Assembly: GCA_964494945.1 (NCBI GenBank)
Contig: CAZBTX010000004.1
Location: forward strand, 27,385 to 91,384
Length of the DNA: 64,000 nt
Direction of reading: 5' to 3'
Origin: an uncultured Candidatus Saccharibacteria bacterium
Lineage (GTDB): Bacteria; Patescibacteriota; Minisyncoccia; Sungbacterales; JACQCQ01
Shown: piece after piece, positions 7,154 through 33,445 of the stretch
How positions within the stretch are numbered: position 1 is the first letter of the stretch
How the letters are laid out: each line of letters begins with the position of its first letter
Translations under genes and position numbers: made by a program
Notes under the pieces: model-generated
Seen by the model: the letters and a program-made list of their open reading frames with translations, nothing else
The model's database searches: none
Told to the model about the DNA's origin: nothing

Positions 7154-7158
7154 CGCGT

Positions 7159-16128: not shown

Positions 16129-17711
16129 ACCGCCAAATCTATCTTGATCACGCACTCGCGGCCTTACCTCGGGTATTAAGCGCGCTGAATCGTACGAAAG
16201 GAATGGAAAGTTTCGGCTGTTTTGACCGAAACTGGTGGCACTATAAAATCACCGATTTCCCCTCGGCGCGTATGCAAGAAGGGGTTTTGACGCTTGCCAT
16301 TCTTTGGAAAGGAGAGTGGAGCCCGTATCGCAGCGATGAAAAGATCTTTGAATGTATCAACGCCGCAATCGACTTTTGGATCTCGCGACAGCATCGGGGC
16401 GGCTCGGTGGAGGAGTGGTACCCGGGCGAGCGAAGCTTTGTGGCAACCGCTTTTTCGCTCTACGCCGTCTCCGAAACTCTGCTGTTAATCCCGGAGCTTA
16501 AGAATCGGCAAATACTTACAGCACACATCCGGCGTTCGGCTGACTGGCTCTTGGGGCGTAGAGAGGAAACGGTAACAAACCAAAATAGCGGGGCGCTGGC
16601 GGCTTTGTATAACGCTTTCCTGCTGACGGGCGATGAACGATATCGTCAGGCCTCAAAAAATCTGGCTAGATTCATAGCCAGCCGCCAATCAAGCGAAGGC
16701 TGGTTTCCCGAATACGGCGGGCCGGACATCGGCTACCTTTCGCTGACCATCGACTATCTCGCCAAATATTATTTGAAATCAAAGGACGACGAGGTAAAAC
16801 CGATGCTTGAAAAAGCCCTAGAGTTCATTTCGCACTTTATTCACCCCGACGGCAGTGCGGGCGGCATTTACGCAAGCCGTAATACCGCCTATCTTATTCC
16901 TTCCGGTTTTGAGGCGCTGGCGAGTGAGTTTCCTATCGCGGCCGCAATCGCAAAAAAAGTTCGCGTGGGTTATCAAACCAACGCCTTGCCGACACCCGAA
17001 ACACTCGATGATCGGTATCTTCTCCAAAATGGATACACATTCTTGCAGGCGCATATGACGGGACTGGCGCGCGAGGAATCCAATGTGCCTGAATTGCCGT
17101 GTGAGACAGAGCGTACTTTCCAATTCCCGCAAGCCGGTATATTGGTGCATTCTGACTCTAAGGTATATTTCGTGGTTAATACTAAAAAGGGCGGCGTTTT
17201 TTACCTGTACGACAAAGAGATAGGAAAAGGAGAATCAAGAGGCGGGCTTGTCCTGCGGCGCGCAAAAAAAGTATATGTTTCCGGCTCGCTGCAAACTCGA
17301 TCAGGGCTAACGAATGATGCGCCTCTTACATTTTTAATCCAAGGAAGTTTGGTGAGAGAAAAAGAGACAAAAGTTTCCGGGACATTCTTCTTTCTCTTGC
17401 GAGCGGCTCACGTTGTCTTTTCTTTTCTGCCGAACGGCGAACAATTCTTAAAGGTCTTTCTGCGTCGGGTGCTTATTTTAAATCGGCGGGAGAGCCGTTG
17501 GAAATTCTCGCGTAAATTCATTTATCAAAATGGGAAACTTGAAGTTGCCGATTATTTCCCGCCGCATATTTTCGATAAAGGATATGCCGGCGGATACGAA
17601 GAGTTCGTTTATGTTCCCTCAAGCCGGCTGTTTCTGGGGTCGCAGCTAAATTCGGACACGCGCGATATAAGCTCTGCCGATCTGAAAATCGGAAAGGTCA
17701 GAGTTTTTTAA
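16125..17711 (+). CDS. Hypothetical protein (possible alpha/alpha-toroid, heparinase II/III-like) in glycan locus
   Basis: It is 528 aa with no TM segment and W/Y-rich helical repeats. Its start is ATGA-coupled to the upstream methyltransferase. Confidence 0.25.
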   Translation: MNRQIYLDHALAALPRVLSALNRTKGMESFGCFDRNWWHYKITDFPSARMQEGVLTLAILWKGEWSPYRSDEKIFECINAAIDFWISRQHRGGSVEEWYPGERSFVATAFSLYAVSETLLLIPELKNRQILTAHIRRSADWLLGRREETVTNQNSGALAALYNAFLLTGDERYRQASKNLARFIASRQSSEGWFPEYGGPDIGYLSLTIDYLAKYYLKSKDDEVKPMLEKALEFISHFIHPDGSAGGIYASRNTAYLIPSGFEALASEFPIAAAIAKKVRVGYQTNALPTPETLDDRYLLQNGYTFLQAHMTGLAREESNVPELPCETERTFQFPQAGILVHSDSKVYFVVNTKKGGVFYLYDKEIGKGESRGGLVLRRAKKVYVSGSLQTRSGLTNDAPLTFLIQGSLVREKETKVSGTFFFLLRAAHVVFSFLPNGEQFLKVFLRRVLILNRRESRWKFSRKFIYQNGKLEVADYFPPHIFDKGYAGGYEEFVYVPSSRLFLGSQLNSDTRDISSADLKIGKVRVF

Positions 17712-19557
17712 CCCAGTGCTCATACCAGACCTGAAAGATGAGCAGTGTCCAGAGTTCTAGGTAGCGGTTCTTGCTGCCGGAGAGATGCTCGTTCATAAGA
17801 GCGGTAACGGCCGCCGGTCTAAAGATATCCTGGCGCTTTAATTTTTGCGGGTCTAGGTATTCCCGGAGTACGGGCTTCAGTATGCCGGAAAACCAACGCG
17901 CGAGTGGCGGCGTTAAACCCTGCTTTTTTTTATCGACGATTTCAGTCCCAAGACGAGGCCGCATAAGTTCGCGCAAAATATATTTTCGTTTCAATCCGCG
18001 GACTTTGTAGCGTTGGGGGAGCGAGATGGCAAAATCAGCCACGCGGGGGTCAAGGAACGGAACGCGGACCTCAAGTGAGTGATACATGCCGGCCCGGTCG
18101 GTTTTCATTAAAATGTCGTCTTGCAGATAGCTCGAAATATAATAGTAAGCGCTTCTTTGAAAATCGTTGAGGTCTCGAGCTTCTCTGTTGCGGTTTGTCA
18201 CGGCCTTAAAGAGCGAATCGCCCAGCGGGCGTTGTACTATCTTGGAAATGAGGTCGGAGTTGATGGCCGATGTCCATTCGGCTTGCCGCAACATCACATC
18301 TTTCTTGTAATTTCCGAAAAAGCGTTCAGCCATAAAGGAAGCGCTCATATACTCACGTGAGGCCGGGAGCATGGTGCGAATCAACCCGCCGATGCCTTTC
18401 ACCGCGCCTTCCGGCAGAGTTCCAAGAATCCGAGCAACGGCCTGGGCCTTAAAGACCTCATACCCGCCGAATAGTTCGTCAGCTCCATCGCCGTCCAGAG
18501 CCACTGTTACTTCTTCCCGCGCGAAACGGCAGAGGAGCGCTGTCGGGAGAAGTGAAGCGTCCGCGAACGGCTCATCCAGCATGGTTGTCAGTTTTTCAAA
18601 CTCGTTCACAACCTCATGTTCGCTGAAGGTCTTCAGACGATGCGTAACACCGGTGCGTTGAGCGGCTAAGCGCGCCGTTTCCGATTCGTCATACGATCTT
18701 TCAGCAAAACCGATCGTGAAGGCCTTGATGTTCGGCGAAATTTTTCTTGCGTAGTAAGCAACAGTGCTTGAATCCACCCCGCCGGAAAGCAGGATTCCCA
18801 GGGGCACGTCGCTTATCATGCGCGACTCGACCGCGCCAGCCAGTTTCGCATCCAATTCGGCTTTGGCTGTTTCAAAAGGTATTTGATTCGCTCCCGGATT
18901 TTTAGGATATTCCCGCCAAGAAAATATCCGCTCCCTTCCGTCTTTGAAAATAAGCGCGTGTGCCGCCGGCAGACGAAAAACATTATTCCAGATGGTTTCC
19001 GGGGTTGGCGTGAAATGATGATAGAGATACCGCAGGGCTCCCGCTTCGTTGAATTCTTTTTTAAAGGCGGGGTGTGCCGCGAGTGCCTTCAGTTCCGAGC
19101 CGAAAAGGAATGTTTCCGGCGTTTTCGTCCAATACAGCGGTTTTTCCCCGAAGCGGTCGCGGGCGAGAAAGAGCATTTCTTTTTTGGCATCCCACAATGC
19201 GATAGCAAACATGCCATCAAGCTCGCTTACCATGTTTTCTCCTTTTTCTTCCCAGAGATGAACCAGTACCTCCGTATCCGAGCGCGTTTTAAAAGTATGC
19301 GTGCTCTCGAGTTTTTTGCGCAATGACGGATAGTTGTAAATCTCACCGTTAAACACCACGGTCACCGTTCCGTCCTCGTTTGATTGCGGCTGCTTGCCGG
19401 TTGAAAGATCAATGATTGAAAGGCGCCGCATGCCAAGATGCGTCCTGCCCGAAATGAAAAAGCCCTCATCATCGGGCCCGCGATGCCTTAAGGTATCCGT
19501 CATATGGCGGAGCGTTCTTTCGTCACCGTCGCCAATGAACCCGGCGATTCCGCACAT
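17698..19557 (-). CDS. asnB: Asparagine synthase (glutamine-hydrolysing) family amidotransferase
   Basis: It has the MCGIAGF N-terminal catalytic Cys2, the SGGVDSS PP-loop, and a length of 619 aa. Confidence 0.8.
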   Translation of the reverse strand: MCGIAGFIGDGDERTLRHMTDTLRHRGPDDEGFFISGRTHLGMRRLSIIDLSTGKQPQSNEDGTVTVVFNGEIYNYPSLRKKLESTHTFKTRSDTEVLVHLWEEKGENMVSELDGMFAIALWDAKKEMLFLARDRFGEKPLYWTKTPETFLFGSELKALAAHPAFKKEFNEAGALRYLYHHFTPTPETIWNNVFRLPAAHALIFKDGRERIFSWREYPKNPGANQIPFETAKAELDAKLAGAVESRMISDVPLGILLSGGVDSSTVAYYARKISPNIKAFTIGFAERSYDESETARLAAQRTGVTHRLKTFSEHEVVNEFEKLTTMLDEPFADASLLPTALLCRFAREEVTVALDGDGADELFGGYEVFKAQAVARILGTLPEGAVKGIGGLIRTMLPASREYMSASFMAERFFGNYKKDVMLRQAEWTSAINSDLISKIVQRPLGDSLFKAVTNRNREARDLNDFQRSAYYYISSYLQDDILMKTDRAGMYHSLEVRVPFLDPRVADFAISLPQRYKVRGLKRKYILRELMRPRLGTEIVDKKKQGLTPPLARWFSGILKPVLREYLDPQKLKRQDIFRPAAVTALMNEHLSGSKNRYLELWTLLIFQVWYEHWVKKL

Positions 19558-19558
19558 A

Positions 19559-20512
19559 TTAGAACCTCAAAGTTTCCTTAATGGGGAGTGCCGCGCCCGC
19601 TTCGGAAGTTTTGAATACGCGGTGCAACATTTCAGCCAAGAGTCCCATCAAAACGAATTGGACAGCGATCATGAAGAAAAATGTGGTGAGTACGGGCAAG
19701 GGGCTTTGGGTGAAGCGAAGCCCCTCGAGCAATTTGAGCAAGAGCATCCAAATAAAAGTTAGAAAGCCCAGAAATGCTGAAATAAATCCGGCTACTCCAA
19801 AAAAATGCATGGGCCGCGCCCCGTACTTCCCGAAGAAGTAAAAGACTATTACATCTAGAATCACGCGGAAAGTGCGCATCAGGCCGTATTTTGAAACCCC
19901 GTATCTCCGGCGCTGCCACGCGACCGGTACTTCGGCGACCCCGGCTCCGGCCGAGGCGGCGTAGGCGGGCATCAGGCGATGGATATCTCCCGAGAAGGGC
20001 AAAGACACCACCGATTCGCGCGCATAGGCCTTGAAAAACCCCCCATGGTCATGCAAGTGTACCCCGGTAACTTTGGAGATGAACCAGTTTGCCAGAACTG
20101 AAGGGATTTTGCGGGTTATCATCTCGCCCTGCCAGCGGTCTTTGCGCCAGCCGGATACGACGTCAAACCCCTCGTTCATTTTCTCCAAAAGAAGCGGTAT
20201 GTCTTCCGGAAGATTTTCCAAATCACCGTCCATAGTCACGATTATCTCGCCCTTTGACTCGCGCACCCCCGCCGCAGTTGCGGTAGTTTTGCCTGAATTA
20301 TGGGATAGCCGCACAATGGTGACGGGTCTTAGCACCTTTAACGCCTCAAGCGTACCGTCATTTGACCCGTCATCTACAAATATGATTTCAAAGCTTTTCA
20401 CGGCATCACTAAGGACCTTCGTCAGCCGTGCGTGAAGTTCCTTAACCGTCCCGGCTTCATTGCATACGGGAATGACTACCGAGACCTCCGTTTTCCTAGC
20501 TGAATCAGCCAT
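19559..20512 (-). CDS. GT2 polyprenyl-phosphate glycosyltransferase (Dpm1/GtrB/ArnC-like) with C-terminal TM helices
   Basis: It carries VVIPVCNE...DDGSNDGT...DGDL and two C-terminal TM segments. Confidence 0.7.
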   Translation of the reverse strand: MADSARKTEVSVVIPVCNEAGTVKELHARLTKVLSDAVKSFEIIFVDDGSNDGTLEALKVLRPVTIVRLSHNSGKTTATAAGVRESKGEIIVTMDGDLENLPEDIPLLLEKMNEGFDVVSGWRKDRWQGEMITRKIPSVLANWFISKVTGVHLHDHGGFFKAYARESVVSLPFSGDIHRLMPAYAASAGAGVAEVPVAWQRRRYGVSKYGLMRTFRVILDVIVFYFFGKYGARPMHFFGVAGFISAFLGFLTFIWMLLLKLLEGLRFTQSPLPVLTTFFFMIAVQFVLMGLLAEMLHRVFKTSEAGAALPIKETLRF

Positions 20513-20688
20513 TTTCGGTCAAGTGGATGATAGCTCAAATGCGGCGAGCGGACAACTTTCTTGATAAATTTGAACAATATTTATATAATTCCCTTCCTTG
20601 TTTTCTTCTAAAGCGATGGGGCCCAGAACGAATGCCTATAGTTCCTGCGTGTTGTCTCGCTATGGATGCCGAAGTAGAATAAAACAAT

Positions 20689-21411
20689 ATGTGGCCTCAA
20701 AAGATTGCCAGAGTCCTGGCGAATGAACTGCAGGTTTGGCGGCGCATGTTGTATAAAAAGACGGCAGTCGGTGGTGTCTCCGGAAAAACGCTGATTGATG
20801 CTTTTCATCGTCTTTACTACGATTCTTACGTTTGGAACGAAACAACTTGGTTCGGAGCCAAGGTAATGAAATATCCCGGAGACCTGGTTATTTATCAGCA
20901 GTTGGTGGCGGAAACTAAGCCGATGGTGATCATTGAAACAGGAACGGCACACGGCGGTTCAGCGCTTTTCTTCGCTCATCTCATGGATATTTTAGGTGGG
21001 GGAAAGGTGATTACGATTGATACCAAAGTTCAGCCCGGCCGTCCCGCGCATCCGAGAATTAAATATCTCACGGGATTTTCCACATCGCAGGATATAATGG
21101 AGCGGGTAAAAAATATGCTGCGACCCGGAGATAGAATAATGGCGGTGCTGGATTCGGATCACGGCAAAGATAACGTATCACGGGAATTGAAAGCATACTC
21201 GCCGCTCGTAACCCCAGGGAACTATCTTATTGTGGAAGACACGAACATCAACGGTCATCCGGTTTATCCGGCCTTCGGCCCCGGTCCCATGGAAGCGGTA
21301 GAGGAATTTTTGCGTGAGAACCATGATTTTGAGATTGACCGCGCTATGGAAAAGTTTTTGGTCACGTTCAATCCTTCCGGATTCTTAAAGAAGCGTAAAA
21401 CGGCAAAATGA
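20689..21411 (+). CDS. CmcI/cephalosporin-hydroxylase-family SAM-dependent O-methyltransferase
   Basis: It matches the family pattern IETGTAHGGSALFFA...DSDH. Confidence 0.65.
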   Translation: MWPQKIARVLANELQVWRRMLYKKTAVGGVSGKTLIDAFHRLYYDSYVWNETTWFGAKVMKYPGDLVIYQQLVAETKPMVIIETGTAHGGSALFFAHLMDILGGGKVITIDTKVQPGRPAHPRIKYLTGFSTSQDIMERVKNMLRPGDRIMAVLDSDHGKDNVSRELKAYSPLVTPGNYLIVEDTNINGHPVYPAFGPGPMEAVEEFLRENHDFEIDRAMEKFLVTFNPSGFLKKRKTAK

Positions 21412-22853
21412 ACATCATATATCGGCATATGAATAAATCCCCACACCTTCCCACGGGGTCTTCGGGAAGGTGTGGGGATAAATCGGAACGGCGAATATGG
21501 TTAGCCGCGCTAGCAGTTCGCCTTTTGGTGTTCGGTCTGATCATTTGGTCGCTCGGCGGCAACGGTCTTATATCGCTGGGAGACTCAAGTCAATATCTGC
21601 GTCTGGCTAAAGGGCTTTTGGATACCGGAACTCTTAGCGACCCCGGCTTTCCCGGTCTCATAGAGGGTACAAGGCCGCCTGGGTATCCCTTGTATCTCGC
21701 GGCATTCCTGTATTTCGGCGTTCCTTTATGGGTTGCTTCTCTTATTCAAATTATGGCGGCGAGTTTTATTCCCATTTTCGTAATGAAAATAGGAGTCCTT
21801 CTGGGTTTTGAGAGAAAGCTGGTTGCCATAGCCGGGTGGTTCACGACGCTTGAACCGCTTGAAGTTCTATACAGCGTAACGCTTCTTTCCGATGCCTTCG
21901 GCGCGCTTTTCTTTATCGCGGGAGCATATTTTCTGGTTCGTTTCTGGCGTACCAGAGCATGGAAAAATTTGATATTGGCATCGTTAATTTTGGGCGCGAT
22001 GAACTACGTACGACCCATCGCTCTATTTCTCTACATTTTGATACCGGCACTCATATTAGCAGCCGGTTTTATCCTTGAACGCTGGCGCTGGAAAGAGCAT
22101 TTAAAAGCCGCCGTCGTATTTGCCGCAGTTTTTTATTTGGTTTTAACACCTTGGCTCGCGCGAAATTATTACGATTTTAACCACTGGGGCTTCCTCTCCG
22201 CTAACAGCCGCCATCTTTATGATTATTCAGCGGTTGCCGTACGAGCGGCCGCAGAAGGAACAACGTATGAAGAGATGCGGCAAAAAATGAGAAGAGAGAT
22301 ACAGCCCCTGCTTCCTGAGCCGCGCGACATCCGGCAATTCGCTAATCAGGAAGTTTTAGGCAAGAAAGCGATTGAGATAATACTTCAGCATCCCAAAGAA
22401 TATGCCAAACTTTATTTTTTCTCCCTGCAAACATTTTTGATCTCCGGCAACTATCATTTCTTGATGGCTTTTTACGGTCTGATAGACGGCCCCAGTGCGG
22501 GGGATCAATCGTTCACGGTACTGCTTTCCAGCCGCAGTATCACCGATGGTTGGGCGGCGGTGAAGGCATTCATTAGTGAGCCCTATGGATTGATAGCGCT
22601 GATGGGTAGAGTCGTTTGGGGCCTGGTATTTGTTTTATCGCTTTTGGGGACGTGGGTCGCGTATAGGCGATATCCCGAGAGTCGTTTTGGCGCATTGTTT
22701 TATATTTTTCTCCTTTTTTATCTTGCGCTTATTACGTTGAGCTTAGTAACCGGCCTTGAGGCGCGGCACCGGCTGTTCGTGAACCCCTTCTACTTCCTGT
22801 TTATGTCTGCGGCTTTGACCTGGCTTTTTGGCAGATTAAGACGAGCGTCCTGA
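21408..22853 (+). CDS. ArnT/PMT-like (GT39/GT83) GT-C membrane glycosyltransferase
   Basis: It is polytopic and carries PPGYPLYLAAF. Its N-terminal tail contains a perfect 14-bp hairpin. Confidence 0.55.
   Translation: MNIIYRHMNKSPHLPTGSSGRCGDKSERRIWLAALAVRLLVFGLIIWSLGGNGLISLGDSSQYLRLAKGLLDTGTLSDPGFPGLIEGTRPPGYPLYLAAFLYFGVPLWVASLIQIMAASFIPIFVMKIGVLLGFERKLVAIAGWFTTLEPLEVLYSVTLLSDAFGALFFIAGAYFLVRFWRTRAWKNLILASLILGAMNYVRPIALFLYILIPALILAAGFILERWRWKEHLKAAVVFAAVFYLVLTPWLARNYYDFNHWGFLSANSRHLYDYSAVAVRAAAEGTTYEEMRQKMRREIQPLLPEPRDIRQFANQEVLGKKAIEIILQHPKEYAKLYFFSLQTFLISGNYHFLMAFYGLIDGPSAGDQSFTVLLSSRSITDGWAAVKAFISEPYGLIALMGRVVWGLVFVLSLLGTWVAYRRYPESRFGALFYIFLLFYLALITLSLVTGLEARHRLFVNPFYFLFMSAALTWLFGRLRRAS
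21439..21477. repeat. Perfect hairpin CCCCACACCTTCCC-N11-GGGAAGGTGTGGGG in N-terminal codons of GT-C gene (related CCCCACACC core)
   Basis: It was verified. Confidence 0.65.
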
Positions 22854-22881
22854 ATGGGTCGCGGCGCAATATACCGATAAA

Positions 22882-24192
22882 ATGGAATTTTCAAAGAAAA
22901 ACTATTTGATATTAGGCATAATTCTCGGCGCTATGATCCTGCGACTTTTTGCTTTTTCGTTCAATTATTTTACGCACGGGAACGTCAATGAGAACGCTAA
23001 AGCCGCCGTGGCTGTGGCATCGTCCTGGACGCTACGGGTAGCGGAGCCGTCTGATGAGCCGTACTGGTATTCCACCAAAGAATACGGCGGGAGGTATCTG
23101 GATTTGAACGCGCCTCTTTGGCCCACCATAGGGGGTGTATTGATGAAGTTCAGCGGTATTAAGCCGTCCGAGGCGAACGCATTCCTGCTTTTTAGAATAA
23201 TGTCATTGGTTGTAGGAATGGGCGTTGTGATATCGGGATATTTGGCCGGGAAAAGGATAATAAGTTCTGATGCCGGAATATTTCTTTCGGCGGTGCTGGG
23301 ACTTTCTTACGTCCTGGTAGATTATTCGGGGAACGGCGCCTTTTATATGGCGCAGGCCCTGCTTTATCTTCTTTGGGTTCTTGCGGCAATAAGTAGAATT
23401 CATTTTCGTGCGTTACTACTTGCCGTTCTTTCCGGCATCGGCTGGCTTTTGAATTATCAAGCCGTGGTGATGATCGCGGCAACCATAATCCTTATTCTTT
23501 GGGAGCGGCGTTTATGGAAAGAAAAGATGCAATCGGCGGGTTTGGCACTGGTTGTGTTTCTTCTGGTGATTTCGCCGCTTCTTATAAGAAATGCCCGGGT
23601 CTTCGGAGACCCTCTTCATACGACCAAAATAAATCTAACTTATGTCTGGAACAAAGCCGGGCTTACGCCGGTAATAGAAGGCCCAGTTAAAACTTTCCAC
23701 CTTGGTTTTGCGGATAAACTTCGCGTGGCCGAGAGCGCCCTTTTGGAATGGCTGCCGCACAACGCCTACTACGTCGCGAGGAAACTTTTTGTGCTTTTGC
23801 CCGTACTTTTTATCTTGGCGCTCTACGGCGCCGTAGACCTTGCTTTTTCTAAGGAACGCAGAAACCGTGTGTTCCCGGTTATTTTGCTCCTGGGGTTGGC
23901 CCTGTCGCAGATGCTGACCTGGCCCATTGTGCAATTCCGTTATTTCGTTCCTATAATCTCGTTGGCGGCACTTATAGGCGTTGAGTTCCTGTATAATTCT
24001 ATTCGGCAATCTGGTGCGAGATATCTCTTAATGGCGGGAACGCTGGCGGGGCTCGTACTCGTGGGATTTCTGTTGTTTAACTCCAATCCTCTTCATGTCT
24101 GTTATTATGATTGCGCGGTGACCACCGGCCCTTTAGGGAGAAACGAAGAGCTGGAACATTTGCGGGCCAATAATCCCTCGCTACTGCCATGA
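22882..24192 (+). CDS. Polytopic membrane protein, possible second GT-C/ArnT-like transferase
   Basis: It is 436 aa with many TM helices. Confidence 0.3.
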   Translation: MEFSKKNYLILGIILGAMILRLFAFSFNYFTHGNVNENAKAAVAVASSWTLRVAEPSDEPYWYSTKEYGGRYLDLNAPLWPTIGGVLMKFSGIKPSEANAFLLFRIMSLVVGMGVVISGYLAGKRIISSDAGIFLSAVLGLSYVLVDYSGNGAFYMAQALLYLLWVLAAISRIHFRALLLAVLSGIGWLLNYQAVVMIAATIILILWERRLWKEKMQSAGLALVVFLLVISPLLIRNARVFGDPLHTTKINLTYVWNKAGLTPVIEGPVKTFHLGFADKLRVAESALLEWLPHNAYYVARKLFVLLPVLFILALYGAVDLAFSKERRNRVFPVILLLGLALSQMLTWPIVQFRYFVPIISLAALIGVEFLYNSIRQSGARYLLMAGTLAGLVLVGFLLFNSNPLHVCYYDCAVTTGPLGRNEELEHLRANNPSLLP

Positions 24193-24299
24193 GACCGGAA
24201 AGCATCAAATTCTTAAAACGTATCCTCCAGTGGTTTGTTGCCGCTGGTCTCGTTTTCATATTTATTGAAGGAGTGCTTTTACGACTACACTAGCGAAAC

Positions 24300-24333
24300 A
24301 ACATTCTCATATTCTCAAGAATATGAGAATGTT
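24300..24333. promoter_or_regulatory. 34-bp perfect palindrome AACATTCTCATATTCT-CA-AGAATATGAGAATGTT 10 bp upstream of oxidoreductase ATG
   Basis: This was checked base by base. The arms are 16 bp with a 2-bp centre. Confidence 0.8.
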
Positions 24334-24342
24334 TTGAACTCA

Positions 24343-25770: not shown

Positions 25771-25826
25771 AGAAACTTGATGGCTTGCTGGGCAGTTTCA
25801 CTAATTAGTTGTATAAATATTTTGGT

Positions 25827-26555: not shown

Positions 26556-26642
26556 ATTCCGGGAAACCGGCGCCTTGCCAAAGTGGTTTCAAGTATATAG
26601 AATCTATCGGTCAATTTGGTATTGCGAAATTAAATATTCTTA

Positions 26643-27995
26643 ATGAGTGAGAAGAAGATTATTTTCATGACGGTGGAGACCAGCATGGCGGCCAAGGAGT
26701 TTTTGCGCTCGGGAGCGTTTCCTATTCTGAAATCCAAACGCCGCGTGGTGCTCTTCGTTCCGGCCGACAAAGTCGCTTACTACCAGAAGCAGTACGGCGG
26801 AGATTCGGTCTTCATTGAGCCCTTGCCGGAGATTAAGCGCCAAGGGCTGCATTTGATTATTAAAAATGTTGCCTTCAACAGTCTTTCTACGGCGAGCGTC
26901 TGGTATCGCATCTGGGAATCGTATTATTTGACCCATCGGCCGTGGAATCTTGCCATGCGCATTATTTTCTGGCACCTCGGCAAACTAAGAATTTGGCGCG
27001 AAGCCACACGCTTGGCCGAATGGCTGATGCGAGATGATGAGATCTGGCGAACAGTTTTTAATAAATACAATCCGGATTTTGTGCTGTGCACTAATGTCAT
27101 CGGCGAAGCCGACATCTCGTTGATGAAACATGCCAGGCGCCGCGGCAGGGGGGCTTACGCCATGATCCGCGGTTGGGACAACTTAACCTCCAAGGGCACC
27201 ATTCGCTTCAAGCCCGATCAGTTGATGGTTTATAACGAGAATATTAAGCGAGAGGCCGTTGAGTACGGCGACATGCGCGCCGAAAGGATAACCGTTGTAG
27301 GTATGCCGCATTATGATTCATACGTTAATTCCGGATTCTATTGGACGCGGGAGGAATTTTTTCTCCGCCTTGGTCTTGACCCGGCCAAAAAGCTGATTGT
27401 GTATGCCATGGGCGGCAATATCGCGGTTGAGGATCCTTACAATCACGCCAAGATGATAAATGACGCCATTGACAGAGGCGACTTGCCCCCAACTCAGCTT
27501 CTTATAAGAGCTCATCCCAAGTACGATATGACCGTATCGGATATCAGCCAGCTTAAGCACGTGAAATTTTATCAGCCCGGCAAAAAGGTCGCCGGCACCA
27601 GGGGCTGGGAGTTCGAAAAGGAAGACACGATGATCTTGATCAATACGGTTCGCTGGAACGACATTAACATCAACTCGGGTTCCGGCCAGACCCTGGAATC
27701 AGTCATGTTTGACCGGCCGGTGGTGATTTTGGGATTCAACGGATACAAACCCGTGCCTTGGCATAAAAATGTCGGAACCGGGCTCGATCTTTTCACGCAT
27801 TATCGGTACATTGTCCGTTCCGGCGGGGTTACCCGCGCCAATAACGAGCAAGAATTGATTGCGGCCTGTCGCGCCTATCTTGCAAATCCCGCATTGCATC
27901 GAGACGGCAGAAAGCGCATGGTGGAAGATATCGCGGGCAAACTCGATGGCAAATCCAGCGAGCGTCTGGCTACGGCGATTTTGTCGTTGGCGTAA
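26643..27995 (+). CDS. GT-B-like capsule/teichoic-type glycosyltransferase (TagF/KpsS-like); candidate nonulosonic-acid transferase
   Basis: It is 450 aa with no TM segment. Its position right after the CMP-sugar synthetase supports the call. The family assignment is inferred. Confidence 0.3.
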   Translation: MSEKKIIFMTVETSMAAKEFLRSGAFPILKSKRRVVLFVPADKVAYYQKQYGGDSVFIEPLPEIKRQGLHLIIKNVAFNSLSTASVWYRIWESYYLTHRPWNLAMRIIFWHLGKLRIWREATRLAEWLMRDDEIWRTVFNKYNPDFVLCTNVIGEADISLMKHARRRGRGAYAMIRGWDNLTSKGTIRFKPDQLMVYNENIKREAVEYGDMRAERITVVGMPHYDSYVNSGFYWTREEFFLRLGLDPAKKLIVYAMGGNIAVEDPYNHAKMINDAIDRGDLPPTQLLIRAHPKYDMTVSDISQLKHVKFYQPGKKVAGTRGWEFEKEDTMILINTVRWNDININSGSGQTLESVMFDRPVVILGFNGYKPVPWHKNVGTGLDLFTHYRYIVRSGGVTRANNEQELIAACRAYLANPALHRDGRKRMVEDIAGKLDGKSSERLATAILSLA

Positions 27996-28016
27996 CGTGA
28001 TAAGGCGGACAGTGCT

Positions 28017-28934
28017 ATGAATTTTGGCCGATCTATTTTAGGAACATTGTGGAATTCTTCCTCGGTCATGAGCTTAAGGGGTCTTTTCTTTGATTTATGG
28101 GAAATATTATCCAGATATCGTCACGAGAAACAGCGATTCATAAAGATGATGGGTTATCCTCTGGATCTCAAAAACCCGCGAAGTTTCAGCCAGCGTATAG
28201 TTTGGAAAAAAATTTACGACCGGAATCCTCTTTTGCCGATCGTCTGCGATAAATACAGGGTGAGGCAGTATATCAAAGATGTTTTGGGCGAAGAAGAAGC
28301 AGAGAAAGTCCTCATCCCGCTGCTGTATGCTTCTGATAATCCCGACACAATTCCTTTTGATAGTTTAAGCGGAGGATACATCGTGAAGCCCAATCATAAC
28401 TCGGGATCCAATATTATAGTTGAAAAAGGAGTAGCCCCTGACAGGGAAAAAATCATTTCAGATCTAAAAAAGCAGCTTAAATCGGCTTACGGGGTCTTTA
28501 AGCACGAGTGGGCTTACAAAAAAATAAAAAAAAGAATGTTTGTGATCGAAAAGCTGCTTAAAGACGCGAATGGGGGGATACTAAAAGATTATAAATTCCA
28601 TATGATCCATGGAAAATGCGCCTTTATACAAGTTGATTACGACCGATTTTCTAGTCATTCCAGGTCTCTTTACGACAGCAACTGGAATTTCATTAAAACG
28701 ACGCTGAAATATAAACAAGGCCCGATAACGTCCAGACCTTATGAGTTGGGAAAAATGCTTTTGCTGGCCGCCAAATTATCGAAAGGTTTTGATTATATAC
28801 GAGTAGATCTTTACAATATCGGGGATCGGATCTACTTTGGCGAACTGACCCAATATCCCGGATCGGGCGTAGAAAGGTTTACACCTCAGTCCTTTGATTT
28901 TGAACTTGGGAAGTATTGGACAAATAAAAAATGA
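28017..28934 (+). CDS. TupA-like ATP-grasp ligase
   Basis: It is ~300 aa with ..KPNHNSGSNIIV. and KYRVRQYI, the TupA pattern. It is strongly AT-rich at ~38% GC. Confidence 0.55.
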   Translation: MNFGRSILGTLWNSSSVMSLRGLFFDLWEILSRYRHEKQRFIKMMGYPLDLKNPRSFSQRIVWKKIYDRNPLLPIVCDKYRVRQYIKDVLGEEEAEKVLIPLLYASDNPDTIPFDSLSGGYIVKPNHNSGSNIIVEKGVAPDREKIISDLKKQLKSAYGVFKHEWAYKKIKKRMFVIEKLLKDANGGILKDYKFHMIHGKCAFIQVDYDRFSSHSRSLYDSNWNFIKTTLKYKQGPITSRPYELGKMLLLAAKLSKGFDYIRVDLYNIGDRIYFGELTQYPGSGVERFTPQSFDFELGKYWTNKK

Positions 28935-28965
28935 CAGAAAGAAAATTAAAAATCCGCTTTAAGGC

Positions 28966-30855
28966 ATGTGTGGAATCGTAGGCATCAGAGATCCTCGCGG
29001 CGTCCCCTCGGACGTTCTCCAGGCAATGACGCGCGAGCTCGTGCACCGCGGACCCGACGACGAGGGTTTCCTCTATCTCGATAAGGCGAAAGGCGAGTAT
29101 GTCGACGCGCCGAGTGCGCATGCGACCCTTGGCTTCCGGTTCCGGCGGCTCTCCATCGTTGACCTCGGCGCGACCGGCCACCAGCCGATGCTGACACCGG
29201 ACCGCGGCGCGGCGATCATCTTCAACGGCGAGATTTACAATTACCTCGAGCTCCGCGCGGAATTGGAGGCACGCGGTGTGCACTTCCGGGGACGCAGCGA
29301 CTCCGAAGTGATCCTCCACCTGCTCGCCCTTGAAGGTCTGGCCGCTCTCCCGCGCCTCAACGGGATGTTCGCCCTTGCCTTCCATGACCGTCGCACGGGG
29401 ACGCTAATCCTCGCGCGCGACCACGTCGGTATTAAACCGCTCTACTGGCTCCGCGAAGGCCCCGCGATTGTCTGGGCGAGCGAGCCAAAGGCCTTTCTCC
29501 ACTACCCCTCGTTCCGACCAGATGTCAACCGCGAGCGCCTCCACGAATTTTTCCTTTTCCGCCACGTCATTGGACCCGACACGCTTCTCCGCGGCGTGCA
29601 CTCGGTGGAGCCGGGAGGGTACGTACTTATTCGCGACGGCGAAGCGCGGGAAGTGCGCTGGTACAAGCCGCCACCGCACGAGCCCGAGCCATTAACGGAG
29701 GACGAGGCGGCGGCGCGCGTTGATGCCGCCGTCGGCGAAAGCGTGAAGGCGCAGCTCATGAGCGACGTGAAAGTCGGCTGTCAATTGTCCGGCGGTATTG
29801 ATTCCACCCTCATTTCCTGGTGGGCCGCGCGCCATCACGGCTCGCTTTTTGACTCCTTCTCCGTAAGCTTCGACGACCCGCGTTACGACGAGAGTCCGTT
29901 CATAGATGCCGTCGTCGCTAAGTTAGGGCTCGTCGGTCACACTACGCGCCTTGCCACTGATGAAATGGCGGCCTCGCTCCTCGACGCGGCGTGGCATCAC
30001 GATTTCCCCATCAGCCACCCCAACGCTCTCGGTATTTACGCGCTCGCTCGCGAGGCCCGCCGCCACCACGTAACTGTACTTCTCAGTGGCGAGGGCGCGG
30101 ACGAGGTGTTCGGCGGATACGCGCACTACAACCGCGCCGCGTGGCTCGCGCGCCTCAATGCTCTACCCGGCGGCCTCGAACTCGCCCGGTGCCGCGGCCT
30201 CGCGCGCGCGGGCGACCTCGCTCGGGCACTCGTTCTGCTCTCCGCTATCTACGACCCCAAAGTGGTGCGCGAGGCCTGTCCATGGTTCGACGGCGAGCAG
30301 GCACTCCGCGAGCGTCTTGAGCTTTGGGCGGCGACGCCGGAGACGGACGCCCTCGAGCACCTCATGGCCTATGAGCGGCGCGCGTACATGGAGGAATTAC
30401 TCCACCGCCAGGACCGCATGTCGATGACGCACTCTATCGAGAACCGCGTGCCGTACCTCGATCCGCGCGTCCTCGCACTCGCCCGGCGTCTCCCCACGCG
30501 CCTCAAGGTTGCCGTCGGGTTGTTCCCACGCCGCGGCACAGCACCCCGCGCCACGAAGCCGATACTTAAGCGCCTCGTCGCGAACCGCTTCGGCGATAAT
30601 TTCGCCTACCGCGCGAAGTCCGGCTTCGCGTTACCGCTCCGCGCGATCTTCGTAGCACCCGCGTTCGAGGCGACGTGGCCGGCGATCCGCGACGCTGTCG
30701 TCGCACTCTCTGTCGCGGAGGCGCCCGCACTCGATGCCTTGAAGGAGCAGGCACTCCGCGAGGGCGGCGACGCGGCGAAGCTTCTATGGACATTTACAGC
30801 GCTCGGCGCGTGGTGGCGCGGCATCTCGCGCGTAGGCGCGGTATTACGGACGTGA
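28966..30855 (+). CDS. asnB: Asparagine synthase (glutamine-hydrolysing) family amidotransferase, compositionally foreign (~65-70% GC)
   Basis: It has the MCGIVGI start and the SGGIDS PP-loop. Many spurious ORFs overlap it on both strands, as expected for a high-GC segment. Confidence 0.8.
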   Translation: MCGIVGIRDPRGVPSDVLQAMTRELVHRGPDDEGFLYLDKAKGEYVDAPSAHATLGFRFRRLSIVDLGATGHQPMLTPDRGAAIIFNGEIYNYLELRAELEARGVHFRGRSDSEVILHLLALEGLAALPRLNGMFALAFHDRRTGTLILARDHVGIKPLYWLREGPAIVWASEPKAFLHYPSFRPDVNRERLHEFFLFRHVIGPDTLLRGVHSVEPGGYVLIRDGEAREVRWYKPPPHEPEPLTEDEAAARVDAAVGESVKAQLMSDVKVGCQLSGGIDSTLISWWAARHHGSLFDSFSVSFDDPRYDESPFIDAVVAKLGLVGHTTRLATDEMAASLLDAAWHHDFPISHPNALGIYALAREARRHHVTVLLSGEGADEVFGGYAHYNRAAWLARLNALPGGLELARCRGLARAGDLARALVLLSAIYDPKVVREACPWFDGEQALRERLELWAATPETDALEHLMAYERRAYMEELLHRQDRMSMTHSIENRVPYLDPRVLALARRLPTRLKVAVGLFPRRGTAPRATKPILKRLVANRFGDNFAYRAKSGFALPLRAIFVAPAFEATWPAIRDAVVALSVAEAPALDALKEQALREGGDAAKLLWTFTALGAWWRGISRVGAVLRT

Positions 30856-31049
30856 TGCGGCTTCGCACCATACGTGAAATGAGATCCACCTCGGGCAGAA
30901 AACTCACGTATTTTTTAATGAAGCTCGAGGATTCCATAAATATAGACAATCCGATTGATTTTGAGTTGGCAGGGCTTATTCTGCGGCGTCGCCTCGGGGA
31001 CGCATCCTGGAAAACCGGGAGGTCTCTTTTGCGGTTCTATAAAATATAG
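30847..31049 (+). pseudogene. Remnant 3' fragment of a second cytidylyltransferase gene (~85% nt identity to 26395-26540)
   Basis: The remnant translates as DVMRLRTIREMRSTSGRKLTYFLMKLEDSINIDNPIDFELA. This parallels the intact gene's DVMRLRTVREMKSTSGKKLAYFFMKPEDSINIDTPVDFELA. Confidence 0.75.
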
Positions 31050-31108
31050 GCCCGTATTGACGTTTTTGTGGTTTAAGGGTACTAATAGCAAGTATTTAGA
31101 ACTATCGG

Positions 31109-32698
31109 ATGGGTGACCACGCGATGCAGTCAACACTAGGGAACAAAGGAAAATTTGACTTCAACGGCCTTTTTACCTTTGAGATGGCGAACAACCATCA
31201 GGGGTCGGTGGAGCACGGAAAACGCATCATCCAGGAGATGGCGGCTTTGGCGCGAAAACACGGTGTTCGCGCCGCGGTTAAACTCCAATTCAGGGACTTG
31301 GATACCTTTATTCATCCCGATTACCGCGAGAGCACCGAAAATAAGCACATTCAGCGTTTTCTTTCTACGCGGCTTTCGGAGGATGAATTCGGTGAACTTT
31401 TGGCGGAAATAAAAAGCCACGGACTGCTTACGATGGTAACGCCCTTTGACGAAGCGTCCGTGGACGCGATTGAGCGTCTGGGCGCGGATATCATAAAGAT
31501 AGGCAGTTCATCGGCGCATGATTGGCCACTGCTTGAAAGAATTGCCGATACGGGAAAGCCGGTGATTTGCTCCACCGGGGGTTTAATGATCCGTGATATT
31601 GACAGAGTTGTCTCGTTTTTTCAGCACCGCGGCGTGCATTTTGCCATAATGTACTGTGTTTCCATGTACCCGACGCCGAATAATAAACTTCATTTGAATC
31701 AAATTGCCATCATGCGCAATCGTTATCCGGACATAACGGTTGGATGGTCCACGCACGAAAGCCCGTCGGATACCCATACGGTGCGCCTGGCTTACGCCAA
31801 GGGCGCCAGGATATTTGAAAAACACGTGGGAGTGCCGACGGATGAGATTAAATTGAATGCTTACTCCGCAACACCCGAAGAAGCAGACGCCTGGGTCGCG
31901 GCTTATAAGGAAGCGGTTGAGGCCTGCGGTGATAACGCGGAACGCGAAATTGATGAGAAAGAAACAGCCGATTTGAAGTCCCTGATGCGCGGAGTTTACG
32001 CCAAAAAGGAAATTAAAGCCGGTGAGCCGATAAAACGCTCGGACGTATTTTTCGCCATGCCGATAATGGAGGGGCAATTAACCAGTGGCAAATGGAAAGA
32101 GGGGCTTTTGGCTGACCGCGATTATCACGTTCACAAACCCGTAAGCGAGCGCATTTACCCCAATCATAAAAGTAAGAAAGAAATAATTTACTCCACCATA
32201 CACGCCGTAAAGGGCATGCTGAATACCGCGCGCATCCCGCTGGGGCATGATTTTTCCGTGGAGATCTCGCATCACTACGGCGTGGAAAACCTGCATAAGA
32301 TAGGATGCCTTTTGATAGAATGCATTAACCGCGAATACGCCAAGAAGATAATTGTCCAGTTGCCGGGACAGTGGAACCCGGTGCACTACCATAAGAAAAA
32401 GGATGAAACGTTCCAACTGCTTTACGGCGAGTTGTATGTGGAAATTGAAGGCAAAAAGAAAATGCTCTATCCCGGCGATTCGCTTTGGGTTCCTCGTGGC
32501 GTTTGGCACTCTTTCGGTACGGCGACTGGAGCCATCTTTGAAGAAATTTCCACCGCGAGTTTCAACGACGATTCATTTTATGTTGACCGCGAGATAGCCA
32601 AAATGGCTAGGGACGACAGGAAGACCCGGCTCCAAAATTGGGGTCGGCATCAGTTTGATGAGGTTAAAGAAGAAGAGCTAGCTAAGAGTTTGCGCTGA
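31109..32698 (+). CDS. NeuB-family nonulosonic acid synthase fused to C-terminal cupin domain
   Basis: It carries FEMANNHQGS and has the NeuB TIM-barrel length. The C-terminus carries the cupin signature HYH...LYPGDSLWVPRGVWHSF. Confidence 0.7.
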   Translation: MGDHAMQSTLGNKGKFDFNGLFTFEMANNHQGSVEHGKRIIQEMAALARKHGVRAAVKLQFRDLDTFIHPDYRESTENKHIQRFLSTRLSEDEFGELLAEIKSHGLLTMVTPFDEASVDAIERLGADIIKIGSSSAHDWPLLERIADTGKPVICSTGGLMIRDIDRVVSFFQHRGVHFAIMYCVSMYPTPNNKLHLNQIAIMRNRYPDITVGWSTHESPSDTHTVRLAYAKGARIFEKHVGVPTDEIKLNAYSATPEEADAWVAAYKEAVEACGDNAEREIDEKETADLKSLMRGVYAKKEIKAGEPIKRSDVFFAMPIMEGQLTSGKWKEGLLADRDYHVHKPVSERIYPNHKSKKEIIYSTIHAVKGMLNTARIPLGHDFSVEISHHYGVENLHKIGCLLIECINREYAKKIIVQLPGQWNPVHYHKKKDETFQLLYGELYVEIEGKKKMLYPGDSLWVPRGVWHSFGTATGAIFEEISTASFNDDSFYVDREIAKMARDDRKTRLQNWGRHQFDEVKEEELAKSLR

Positions 32699-32757
32699 AA
32701 CGCCGAACTTTTTGCTTGCTCTTTTTCAGGTATGCGAAACCAAAGGAGACAACTCTC

Positions 32758-33402
32758 ATGATAAAAGTAGTGGTGTTTGACTTCGACGACACGCTGGTTC
32801 GCGGGACGGAGTGGAAGAAACAAACCGCGTTTTGGAGTATATTCTGCGACATTCCCGGCGCGGAGGATAAAGCACGGGCGTTCACGATAGAACACCCGGG
32901 CACGGGTCGTCTGGACATGATAACTGGCATTCTGGCGGAACTGGAGCGTTTCGGCATTTTGGACGGCCCCGCTTCGGCAGAATACTATCTAGCGCGCTAT
33001 ACTAAGGCGGCAGAAGACCTACAATCGGCTGCGCCGGCGACGCCGGGTGCCGAAAAAGCGCTTGATGACCTGGTTCGGGCAGGCATCTTGGTCGCTTTGA
33101 ATTCCGCGACGCCCCAGGAGGCGATAGAGCGAGTGCTGGAGATTCGGGGCTGGCGGCATAAATTTGCGGCAGTATGCGGTGCCCCACCCGGCACCAAGAT
33201 GGAGAATCTCGGCAAGATTCTGGCACTCCTCGGCGTTCAAGGACACGAGACCGCGGTTGTCGGAGACGGGCAATCGGACTTGGACGCGGCGATGCGGCAC
33301 GACTGCCGTTTTGTAGCCATTCGCGGCGGGTTATCTCGTTTCGGCCGTAAGGATATGATGATACTGGACGACCTTAACGGCCTCCTGACGGCGTTGGATT
33401 AA
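32758..33402 (+). CDS. HAD-superfamily hydrolase/phosphatase
   Basis: It carries VVVFDFDDTLV, motif I. The start was chosen at MIKVVV. Confidence 0.65.
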   Translation: MIKVVVFDFDDTLVRGTEWKKQTAFWSIFCDIPGAEDKARAFTIEHPGTGRLDMITGILAELERFGILDGPASAEYYLARYTKAAEDLQSAAPATPGAEKALDDLVRAGILVALNSATPQEAIERVLEIRGWRHKFAAVCGAPPGTKMENLGKILALLGVQGHETAVVGDGQSDLDAAMRHDCRFVAIRGGLSRFGRKDMMILDDLNGLLTALD

Positions 33403-33405
33403 GGA

Positions 33406-33445
33406 CGGCCCGCCCCGATGACCATCGGGGCGGGCTACAAAATTT
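33406..33445 (+). terminator. GC hairpin GCCCGCCCCGAT-GACC-ATCGGGGCGGGC followed by A/T-rich tract
   Basis: It is a perfect 12-bp stem. Confidence 0.5.

Follow-up and report, generated by a model that had tools for sequence, protein, structure and literature searches.

A NeuB-SAF-isomerase fusion protein in a widespread gene cassette predicted to make a CMP-activated ulosonic acid

A 64,000-nucleotide stretch of contig CAZBTX010000004.1 from an uncultured Candidatus Saccharibacteria bacterium (assembly GCA_964494945.1; hereafter the window) encodes a protein in which a NeuB-type synthase and a SAF-like domain are followed by a cupin that resembles D-lyxose/D-mannose isomerases (Table 1). Its gene belongs to a conserved four-gene cassette, together with genes for a cytidylyltransferase, a HAD phosphatase and a Gfo/Idh/MocA oxidoreductase. 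We propose, with moderate confidence, that this cassette, often joined by a TagB-like transferase, makes and transfers a cytidine monophosphate (CMP)-activated 3-deoxy-2-ulosonic acid of the NeuB lineage that is distinct from N-acetylneuraminic acid (Neu5Ac), pseudaminic acid and legionaminic acid. The product would most likely be a deaminated nonulosonic acid resembling 2-keto-3-deoxynononic acid (Kdn). Far from being an oddity of one lineage, the module is a genuine variant of ulosonic-acid biosynthesis that occurs widely and, as far as we could find, is uncharacterized.

Nonulosonic acids are key surface determinants. To our knowledge, the known bacterial routes to them (neuraminic, pseudaminic and legionaminic acids with their relatives, and Kdn) all lack a fused isomerase, and our search of the literature returned no description of the fusion, of the cassette, or of nonulosonic acids in Patescibacteria. 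The cell surfaces of candidate-phylum bacteria mediate an episymbiotic life and their chemistry is unknown; the cassette predicts a specific acidic sugar there, and is amenable to a direct in vitro test.

Domain architecture and active sites of the fusion protein

The fusion protein is 100% identical to a protein from the ‘Candidatus Sungbacteria’ metagenome-assembled genome GCA_016181625.1, which places the source of the window in the Patescibacteria. Its database copy (P0001) begins at Met6, and databases name it ‘N-acetylneuraminate synthase family protein’ or ‘SpsE/cupin’. Pfam recognized NeuB (PF03102, residues 48–276, 144.9 bits against a cut-off of 22.1) and Cupin_2 (residues 419–472, 41.4 bits). 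The closest solved relative is PDB entry 3g8r (E=1e-92), which aligns over residues 20–331, its SAF-like C-terminal domain included. An AlphaFold (AF2) model built from 35 homologues (pLDDT 88.4) was superposed by Foldseek onto 3g8r with a target-normalized TM-score of 0.92 over 330 columns, and also onto full-length Neisseria meningitidis NeuB and Campylobacter jejuni PseI. The Pfam SAF model (PF08666) made no detection in the window protein itself; in dozens of relatives of the same architecture, NeuB, SAF and Cupin_2 are all found in one protein. The order of parts is NeuB barrel, SAF-like domain, helix and cupin. The initial annotation had put the cupin in place of the SAF domain, and this has to be corrected: the SAF-like domain is kept, as seen in the alignment to 3g8r, the superposition of the model and the PF08666 matches of the relatives, and the cupin follows it. 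We also considered that the cupin might be nothing but a divergent SAF domain; the 3g8r and N. meningitidis NeuB alignments, the AF2 model, the Foldseek matches and the Pfam domains of the relatives rule this out, and identify a true cupin alongside the retained SAF-like domain.

After the NeuB-type matches, the next structures found by Foldseek match the C-terminal part and are the D-lyxose isomerases of Bacillus subtilis (2y0o), Thermofilum (7nzo-q) and Escherichia coli (3kmh), with E ~1e-11, a target-normalized TM-score of ~0.7 and 164–179 aligned columns, nearly their full length. The manganese and sugar site of the Thermofilum enzyme (TsLI) consists of K62, H75, H77, K86, E88, H143, E156 and D163, and mutating the equivalents of K86, E156 and D163 kills activity (PMC8378251). 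By a HMMER alignment to 2y0o, the site corresponds to K413, H426, H428, K431, E433, H467 and E479 of the fusion protein; seven of the eight TsLI residues are identical in the fusion and invariant in the 35 homologues, and the eighth, D163, aligns beside the invariant D488. Among the profiles, the isomerase model PF07385 scores 28.2 bits over the whole protein (cut-off 20.8) yet no individual stretch passes, and NF051472 scores 22 bits against 350. Because the structural matches are near full length and seven of the eight active-site residues are invariant, the cupin looks like a working metal-dependent aldose-ketose isomerase and not a generic barrel.

With the D-lyxose/D-mannose isomerases (B. 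subtilis YdaE, 2y0o; TsLI, 7nzo; E. coli Z5688, 3kmh) the cupin shares the full-length fold, the His-His-Glu-His manganese site, the catalytic Lys-x-Glu pair, and the substrate-binding Lys and Glu. It differs from them in its low identity (22–24%), in being fused to a synthase where they are free-standing, and in an extra conserved C-terminal ‘RKT..L..W’ segment. A basic C-terminal tail is conserved in the fusion family (R504 and K505, with R501, R513 and H514 in close relatives) and absent from the solved lyxose isomerases. The known lyxose and mannose isomerases are catabolic or of unknown role and not biosynthetic. Stand-alone homologues of the isomerase domain (169 aa, ~45% identity) occur in two loci (L088, 4466–6510; L089, 4952–8474), one next to a 467-aa HAD-containing protein and the other beside a carbamoyltransferase and an NDK-like protein. 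With no NeuB gene near either of them, they are of no help as split (Rosetta-stone) forms.

In NeuB structures the metal is bound through His215 and His236 and the sugar through Gln55 and Tyr186 (PMC11339185; PMC8208679), and phosphoenolpyruvate (PEP) through Ser132, Ser154 and Ser213, numbered Ser130, Ser152 and Ser211 in PNH5 (PMC11339185). The equivalents of the NeuB site residues in the fusion protein are H216, H239, K58, Q60, T111, K130, S133, S155, Y187, S214 and E237, all of them invariant across the 35 homologues save His216, which is conserved in at least 90%. Lys53 and Lys129 of N. meningitidis NeuB are further residues which we take, from its structure, to bind PEP. Whether the NeuB homologue retains the PEP- and metal-binding residues had been named in the initial annotation as a point to be checked, and the alignment with N. 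meningitidis NeuB and the 35 homologues shows that they are kept. In the SAF domain, Arg314 binds the carbonyl of the N-acetyl group of N-acetylmannosamine (PMC11339185; PMC8208679). This position is Met317 in the fusion protein, within a conserved ‘FAMP’ segment whose A316 and P318 are invariant.

The fusion protein scores below the cut-offs of both the NeuB/NnaB equivalog TIGR03569 (138.3 bits against 399.65) and the PseI model TIGR03586 (134 bits against 340.25). To judge from these profiles and residues, the N-terminal half is a NeuB-family PEP-condensing enzyme, and not a Neu5Ac or pseudaminic-acid synthase. It shares with N. meningitidis NeuB (1xuz) and PseI (8h2c) the TIM barrel, the domain-swapped SAF/antifreeze-like domain, the metal-binding pair of histidines and the PEP-binding lysines and serines, and would be expected to condense PEP with an aldose as they do. 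Unlike them, it has only 22–25% identity to either, scores far below the cut-offs, has lost Arg314, carries an extra C-terminal isomerase domain of ~175 residues, and has no genes for amino-sugar supply alongside.

PDB entry 3g8r is annotated as ‘probable spore coat polysaccharide biosynthesis protein E’ of Chromobacterium violaceum, a structural-genomics entry without an assigned function. It belongs to the same family as the window protein (44–45% identity). The native C. violaceum protein has 495 residues in the order NeuB-SAF-cupin, of which the crystallized part spans roughly the first 350 and leaves out the cupin. The sole crystal structure of the family thus shows a fusion protein in truncated form.

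The cassette, its partners and its distribution

Neighboring genes were counted in the 46 loci that extend at least 4 kb to each side of the fusion gene, considering homologues within 4 kb on the same strand. The cytidylyltransferase was present in 44 of the 46 and the Gfo/Idh/MocA oxidoreductase in 43, while the HAD phosphatase was found in at least 35, a lower bound because the identity is only ~30%. All three occurred together in 31 loci, and a homologue of the 450-aa TagB-like protein in 15. The cassette genes lie on one strand with gaps of tens of bases. Unsupervised clustering of all open reading frames (ORFs) agreed with these counts, giving a median distance to the fusion gene of 41 bp for the oxidoreductase and 21 bp for the HAD phosphatase, and independent look-ups of the neighbors showed the same partners. 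The fusion gene, the cytidylyltransferase, the HAD phosphatase and the oxidoreductase are a conserved four-gene cassette. Outside the candidate phyla the usual order is oxidoreductase, fusion, HAD, cytidylyltransferase (often followed by a methyltransferase), and inside them cytidylyltransferase, fusion, HAD, oxidoreductase. Three database proteins join parts of the cassette, either as true fusions or as merged gene calls: a 770-aa cytidylyltransferase-NeuB-SAF-isomerase (P0089), a 569-aa cytidylyltransferase-Gfo/Idh/MocA protein (P0215), and a 674-aa form with an extra cytidylyltransferase-like PF01467 domain (P0038).

The cytidylyltransferase matches PF02348 (CTP_transf_3) with 95.9 bits (cut-off 22.6) and stays below the cut-off of the PseF model TIGR03584 (155.4 bits against 205.7). 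Membership of the canonical NeuB, PseI and PseF families is excluded by the NCBIfam cut-offs. The closest solved proteins to the cytidylyltransferase are NeuA enzymes (E=1e-32); it aligns with NeuA and PseF over its full length, and with the KdsB models over only the N-terminal ~75 residues. The HAD phosphatase has the nucleophile motif FDFDDT and gives weak NCBIfam matches only, of the phosphoglycolate, hexitol and 2-deoxyglucose-6-phosphate phosphatase types; its Pfam and NCBIfam matches include no model of the cap-less KdsC/BT1713 type. In the relatives its gene is almost always directly downstream of the fusion gene. The oxidoreductase matches PF01408 weakly (35.9 bits). Among 31 homologues, G9 and G12 of its GxGxxG motif and E98-K99-P100 are invariant and G7 is conserved in at least 90%, and Foldseek assigns its AF2 model (pLDDT 92.6) to the two-domain Gfo/Idh/MocA fold.

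The TagB-like protein is a candidate CMP-ulosonate transferase. It matches the BFO_1060 family model NF046086 with 43.4 bits (cut-off 200) over profile positions 40–169 of 365, and Glyphos_transf weakly as well. The BFO_1060 family comprises genetically proven Tannerella transferases of pseudaminic- and legionaminic-acid derivatives (PMC5420450). The protein resembles BFO_1060/Tanf_01245 of Tannerella forsythia in its TagB/TagF-like GT-B type, its HP motif and the position of its gene beside a CMP-nonulosonate synthetase, and differs in that the similarity is partial and sub-threshold. A second cassette-linked family in other phyla (C7, ~460 aa) is its remote homologue (hhalign probability 97%). 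Sequence searches of the PDB with the HAD phosphatase, the oxidoreductase and this 450-aa transferase gave nothing useful.

More than 100 clusters with 59–80% identity, mostly from Patescibacteria, were retrieved in a protein search, and all contain the same fusion. In a scan of one genome per species, at least 599 pattern matches were found and at least 576 of them confirmed. The best 80 of the at least 576 matches belong to Patescibacteria, Nitrospira, deltaproteobacterial lineages, Gemmatimonadales, Elusimicrobia, Verrucomicrobiota and Chloroflexota, and include two cultured carriers, Niveispirillum irakense DSM 11586 and Salinisphaera japonica YTM-1. With the isomerase domain alone as query, 332 clusters at 50% identity were obtained (E<=1e-10). 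In a plasmid collection, a distant Ensifer NeuB was the sole match. The initial annotation had predicted a sugar not yet described for this lineage; the fusion is no peculiarity of the lineage and is spread across phyla, and the cassette is present in Patescibacteria, Nitrospira, Desulfobacterota-type lineages and some cultured Proteobacteria. In a group of nine Nitrospira loci (L042, L047, L049, L051, L054, L061, L062, L066, L072), it lies within a fixed bigger block, in the order GDP-fucose-synthase-like epimerase, AONS-like pyridoxal-phosphate enzyme, 811-aa Mito_fiss_Elm1 (GT-B) protein, 465-aa TagB-like homologue, cassette, and zinc-ribbon methyltransferase.

Several patescibacterial loci carry the cassette beside one or two more canonical NeuB paralogues (L018, 8980–19248; also L009, L019, L022, L028, L046). 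These paralogues score 226–266 bits with the NeuB model, and a second cytidylyltransferase and a bona fide NeuC (346 bits, over its cut-off) accompany them. Such loci therefore hold two or three adjacent ulosonic-acid pathways, which argues for a distinct product of the cassette.

The native 3g8r protein and a homologue from Azoarcus sp. KH32C represent a beta-proteobacterial branch with a different gene context. Their neighbors are a nucleotide-sugar nucleotidyltransferase (NTP_transferase), an NDP-sugar 4,6-dehydratase, a DegT protein, a thiamine-pyrophosphate enzyme, a C-methyltransferase, a NUDIX hydrolase and a radical SAM protein, and the Azoarcus gene adjoins flagellin. Unlike the window branch, this branch has no oxidoreductase or CMP-transferase of the cassette nearby and no HAD gene within 10 kb, and has Gln in place of the first metal-binding His of the cupin. 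The presence of the 4,6-dehydratase and the NUDIX hydrolase without a HAD phosphatase implies that it handles 6-deoxy, unphosphorylated sugars.

The predicted product and competing explanations

In the pathway that we favor, the HAD phosphatase would dephosphorylate a common ketose phosphate, for instance fructose-6-phosphate, to the free ketose, and the Mn-dependent isomerase domain would turn this ketose into a manno- or lyxo-configured aldose. The NeuB barrel, capped by the SAF-like domain, would then condense the aldose irreversibly with PEP, and the fusion of the two domains may pull an unfavorable isomerase equilibrium forward. The cytidylyltransferase would form the CMP-sugar, the Gfo/Idh/MocA enzyme may oxidize or epimerize the sugar or its CMP form, and the TagB-like GT-B enzyme would move the sugar onto a glycan. 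The analysis shows the identities of the domains, the conservation of their catalytic residues, and how conserved and how widely distributed the cassette is; we infer which substrate is used, what is made, in which order the steps run and what the oxidoreductase does.

Nine carbons are suggested by the synthase, which is of the NeuB and not the KdsA type, by the full-length match of the cytidylyltransferase to NeuA and PseF, and by the nonulosonate-like transferase. A deaminated product is predicted because amino-sugar genes are missing from the locus and the cassette, and because Arg314 is replaced by Met317: Pfam and NCBIfam scans of the ~40-kb locus found no aminotransferase, N-acetyltransferase, NeuC, PseB/C/H/G or LegB/C/H/G, and the neighborhood clustering found no amino-sugar enzymes among the conserved neighbors of the cassette. 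Of the CMP-nonulosonic-acid pathway in the initial annotation, the NeuB-family CMP-ulosonic-acid module stands, while its assignment to the sialic, pseudaminic or legionaminic type does not, given the profile scores, the loss of Arg314 and the missing amino-sugar genes.

Several observations weigh against this pathway. Glu134 of N. meningitidis NeuB, its proposed catalytic residue (PMC8208679), is an invariant Ser in the fusion family, and the loop bearing Asp247 is absent or different; the chemistry at the aldose site may consequently differ more than assumed. For the oxidoreductase, GenD2, NAD-dependent glycosidases, an aldose-aldose oxidoreductase and YjhC/NanOx all match at about E=1e-19 in Foldseek, and with dozens of specificities scoring alike, the structure search cannot discriminate its reaction. 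The TagB-like protein is a candidate transferase by weak, sub-threshold similarity, and fructose-6-phosphate is a guess at the entry metabolite. The HAD phosphatase fits equally well the logic of Kdn-9-phosphate and Kdo-8-phosphate (Kdo, 3-deoxy-octulosonic acid) pathways, in which a phosphatase acts after the synthase. Some lyxose isomerases of known structure favor pentoses, so the product could also have eight carbons.

A phosphorylated route is a possible, if somewhat unlikely, alternative. Here the isomerase domain would convert a ketose phosphate, for example fructose-6-phosphate, into the aldose phosphate (mannose-6-phosphate), NeuB would form the ulosonate phosphate (Kdn-9-phosphate), and dephosphorylation by the HAD phosphatase would precede activation by the cytidylyltransferase. 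The set of isomerase, PEP aldolase, phosphatase and cytidylyltransferase parallels KdsD/KdsA/KdsC/KdsB, and also the Kdn pathway of Bacteroides and Prymnesium, in which mannose-6-phosphate and PEP give Kdn-9-phosphate, followed by a phosphatase and a CMP-Kdn synthetase (PMC6200933). The near-constant position of the HAD gene right after the fusion gene and the conserved basic tail, missing from the solved lyxose isomerases, are consistent with such a route. Against it, the known lyxose isomerases and bacterial NeuB enzymes take unphosphorylated sugars, the HAD protein is not of the KdsC/BT1713 type, and the beta-proteobacterial branch combines the 4,6-dehydratase and NUDIX hydrolase with the absence of a HAD gene; basic residues of the beta2-alpha2 loop (K79, R83) are kept in that branch too and so are not phosphate-specific. 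The free-sugar route is slightly favored because both parent families use unphosphorylated sugars, and because the beta-proteobacterial branch handles 6-deoxy sugars, on which no terminal phosphate is possible. The cassette has the same set of activities as the Kdn genes of B. thetaiotaomicron (BT1713-BT1715) and Prymnesium parvum and as the Kdo genes KdsD/A/C/B, and a deaminated ulosonic acid from a central sugar phosphate is predicted. It departs from both in the cupin isomerase fused to the synthase, the capped class IA HAD in place of a KdsC phosphatase, and the additional Gfo/Idh/MocA enzyme. The teichulosonic-acid (Kdn polymer) cluster of Streptomyces coelicolor, SCO4873-4882, which is described in the literature, may include a relative.

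An eight-carbon, Kdo-like 3-deoxy-octulosonic acid, made by converting D-xylulose or its 5-phosphate into D-lyxose before condensation with PEP, appears improbable. The nearest structural relatives of the cupin are indeed D-lyxose isomerases, and the Thermofilum enzyme is nearly lyxose-specific (PMC8378251). Yet the synthase is of the NeuB type and not of the KdsA type, the cytidylyltransferase aligns in full with NeuA and PseF and only N-terminally with KdsB, and the interconversion of mannose and fructose is catalyzed by many lyxose isomerases as well (PMC8378251; PMC10165151).

We give equally little credence to a cupin that does not feed the synthase, serving instead as a sugar-binding regulatory or oligomerization module or acting on the finished ulosonic acid. 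The steps may run in another order, the first metal histidine is a glutamine in the beta-proteobacterial branch, and stand-alone cupin homologues lie in unrelated contexts, all of which would suit such a role. In the window branch, on the other hand, the metal ligands and the catalytic Lys and Glu are all invariant, and the fusion has been kept across many phyla.

A broader and decidedly speculative proposal concerns the whole family. Normally, a NeuC/LegG/PseG-type step supplies the manno-configured free sugar. The NeuB-SAF-isomerase family might constitute a fourth, unrecognized route to nonulosonic acids, in which the fused cupin isomerase replaces that step. The window branch with its Gfo/Idh/MocA enzyme might then make a deaminated CMP-nonulosonic acid, neither Kdn nor any described sugar, for the surfaces of many Patescibacteria and Nitrospira, and the beta-proteobacterial branch a 5-hydroxy, amino-deoxy, branched nonulosonic acid on flagellin.

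The glycan locus and the genes around the cassette

The cassette lies within what, judged by its Pfam content, is one big Wzx/Wzy-type surface-glycan locus. Besides the genes of Table 1 it contains GT4 and GT2 transferases, a Wzx-like flippase, three GT-C proteins, a FAD oxidoreductase and a Bac_transf initiating transferase, with three methyltransferases in all; housekeeping genes (SecA, M1 peptidase, SecDF) follow downstream from 41910 on. The genes listed in the initial annotation are real, as all are long ORFs with Pfam matches ranging from E 1e-8 (GFO_IDH_MocA) to 1e-92, and its domain calls hold at the coordinates it gave. The oxidoreductase gene lies just beyond position 33402, where the module had been taken to end. 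The Wzy_C gene follows the cassette in the window and in the candidate-phylum relatives L004, L008, L017, L027, L030 and L043.

Table 1. Features of the window and of the beta-proteobacterial branch, with positions and the evidence for each assignment (aa, amino acids; nt, nucleotides).
Feature	Position	Strand	Evidence or remark
Surface-glycan locus (enclosing)	1..39538	.	Pfam scans; ORF listing with Pfam/NCBIfam
Methyltransferase	5-1330		Pfam
CE4 deacetylase	4080-4883		Pfam
AsnB without glutaminase domain	5771-7153		Long ORF, Pfam
Carbamoyltransferase	10982-12796	-	Pfam
Methyltransferase	15292-16128		Pfam
AsnB1, full-length AsnB-type amidotransferase	17698..19557	-	Pfam, NCBIfam; wider glycan locus, not cassette
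CmcI methyltransferase	20689-21411		Pfam
CMP-ulosonate synthetase (cytidylyltransferase)	25809..26555, likely start ATG 25827	+	PF02348
TagB/TagF-like GT-B protein, candidate CMP-ulosonate transferase	26643..27995	+	R-x-H-P motif (LLIRAHPK)
TupA-like ATP-grasp ligase	28017..28934	+	PF14305, 184 bits, cut-off 25; in the cassette operon of this genome only
AsnB2, full-length AsnB-type glutamine amidotransferase	28966..30855	+	Pfam GATase_7 and Asn_synthase
Relic copy of the cytidylyltransferase 3' end	30840..30983	+	144-nt direct repeat of 26388-26531, 82% identity
NeuB-SAF-isomerase fusion protein, 529 aa	31109..32698	+	Pfam, PDB match, AF2 model, Foldseek
NeuB TIM barrel of the fusion	aa 21-276; nt 31169-31936		
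SAF/antifreeze-like domain of the fusion	~aa 283-345; nt 31955-32143		
D-lyxose/D-mannose-isomerase-like cupin of the fusion	~aa 356-515; nt 32174-32653		
HAD-superfamily (class IA-like) sugar-phosphate phosphatase	32716..33402, likely start ATG 32758	+	Pfam Hydrolase, HAD_2
Divergent Gfo/Idh/MocA NAD(P)-dependent sugar oxidoreductase	33484..34542	+	PF01408
Wzy_C (O-antigen polymerase/ligase-like) membrane protein with TPR tail	34676..36928	+	Pfam
Beta-proteobacterial fusion gene, Chromobacterium violaceum	L090, 10001-11488		~45% identity
Beta-proteobacterial fusion gene, Azoarcus sp. KH32C	L091, 10001-11491		~45% identity

A block of ~4.45 kb with the genes for the TagB-like transferase, TupA and AsnB2 separates the cytidylyltransferase from the fusion gene. 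Just upstream of the fusion gene lies the relic copy of the cytidylyltransferase 3' end, overlapping a 64-codon ORF (30855–31049) whose product resembles the cytidylyltransferase C-terminus. Because of this repeat, the block is best read as a secondary insertion into an ancestral junction between the two genes; the junction is unbroken in the closest relative (L008), and the order cytidylyltransferase-fusion is typical of the candidate-phylum relatives. TupA and AsnB2 thus appear to be a lineage-specific insertion into the cassette. Co-transcription makes a modification of glycan carboxylates plausible, and TupA and AsnB2 may attach amide or aminoacyl groups to one of the carboxylates of this glycan or otherwise modify the acidic sugar. 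No gene for uronic-acid synthesis was found in the glycan locus.

The initial annotation had treated a rich set of tailoring enzymes as part of the module, and had compared the AsnB proteins with PseA, which makes acetamidino-pseudaminic acid. Neither idea was borne out by the comparison with profiles and other genomes. In the profile search none of the three AsnB proteins matched TIGR03573, the PseA-type model, in NCBIfam at E<=0.001, and the analogy fails for this reason. AsnB1 and AsnB2 pass the asparagine-synthase model TIGR01536 (485 and 410 bits, cut-off 267), to which the third AsnB scores 64.5 bits; AsnB1 stays below the cut-off of the XrtA-system amidotransferase model (515 bits against 817). 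The NCBIfam profiles thus exclude PseA-like AsnB proteins. Within 4 kb of the fusion gene, AsnB occurred in three to four of the 46 loci, and TupA, the carbamoyltransferase and CmcI in none; among the best 80 of the at least 576 matches, TupA was found anywhere in the locus only once. These neighborhood counts exclude the tailoring genes from the conserved module. The prediction of an amidated, carbamoylated and methylated sugar derives only from local gene proximity, and the whole locus with its tailoring genes is of the usual kind for polysaccharide synthesis.

A sialic-, pseudaminic- or legionaminic-type pathway whose product is amidated (as PseA-like acetamidino), carbamoylated and methylated by the neighbors is accordingly very improbable: although one locus unites a synthase of the NeuB family, a cytidylyltransferase resembling NeuA and PseF and numerous tailoring genes, with TupA and AsnB2 between the cytidylyltransferase and the synthase on the same strand, the synthase is far under the NeuB and PseI cut-offs and the cytidylyltransferase under that of PseF, the 40-kb locus has no PseB/C/H/G, LegB/C/H/G, NeuC or aminotransferase, TIGR03573 is matched by none of the AsnB proteins, the synthase is not accompanied by the tailoring genes in other genomes, and the relic repeat marks the TupA-AsnB2 block as a secondary insertion.

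Immediately upstream of the cytidylyltransferase, 24235–25770 encodes a FAD-dependent amine-oxidase/UDP-galactopyranose-mutase-like protein. Its score with the NCBIfam equivalog NF005548 (‘hypothetical protein’, PRK07208 group) is 681 bits, well over the cut-off; this is a well-conserved family without a known function. Also inside the glycan locus, 12864–15305, 19559–20512, 21408–22853 and 22882–24192 encode a YfhO-like GT-C protein, two PMT_2-like GT-C proteins and one GT2 protein, the genes expected for extracytoplasmic glycosylation from a polyprenyl-phosphate sugar. Pfam matches are absent or marginal for two ORFs, 16125–17711 (528 aa), between a methyltransferase and AsnB1 in the glycan locus, and 60154–61596 (480 aa). 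Outside the glycan locus, 58966–60015 encodes a 349-aa protein with Sigma-70 region 4 and HARE-HTH domains.

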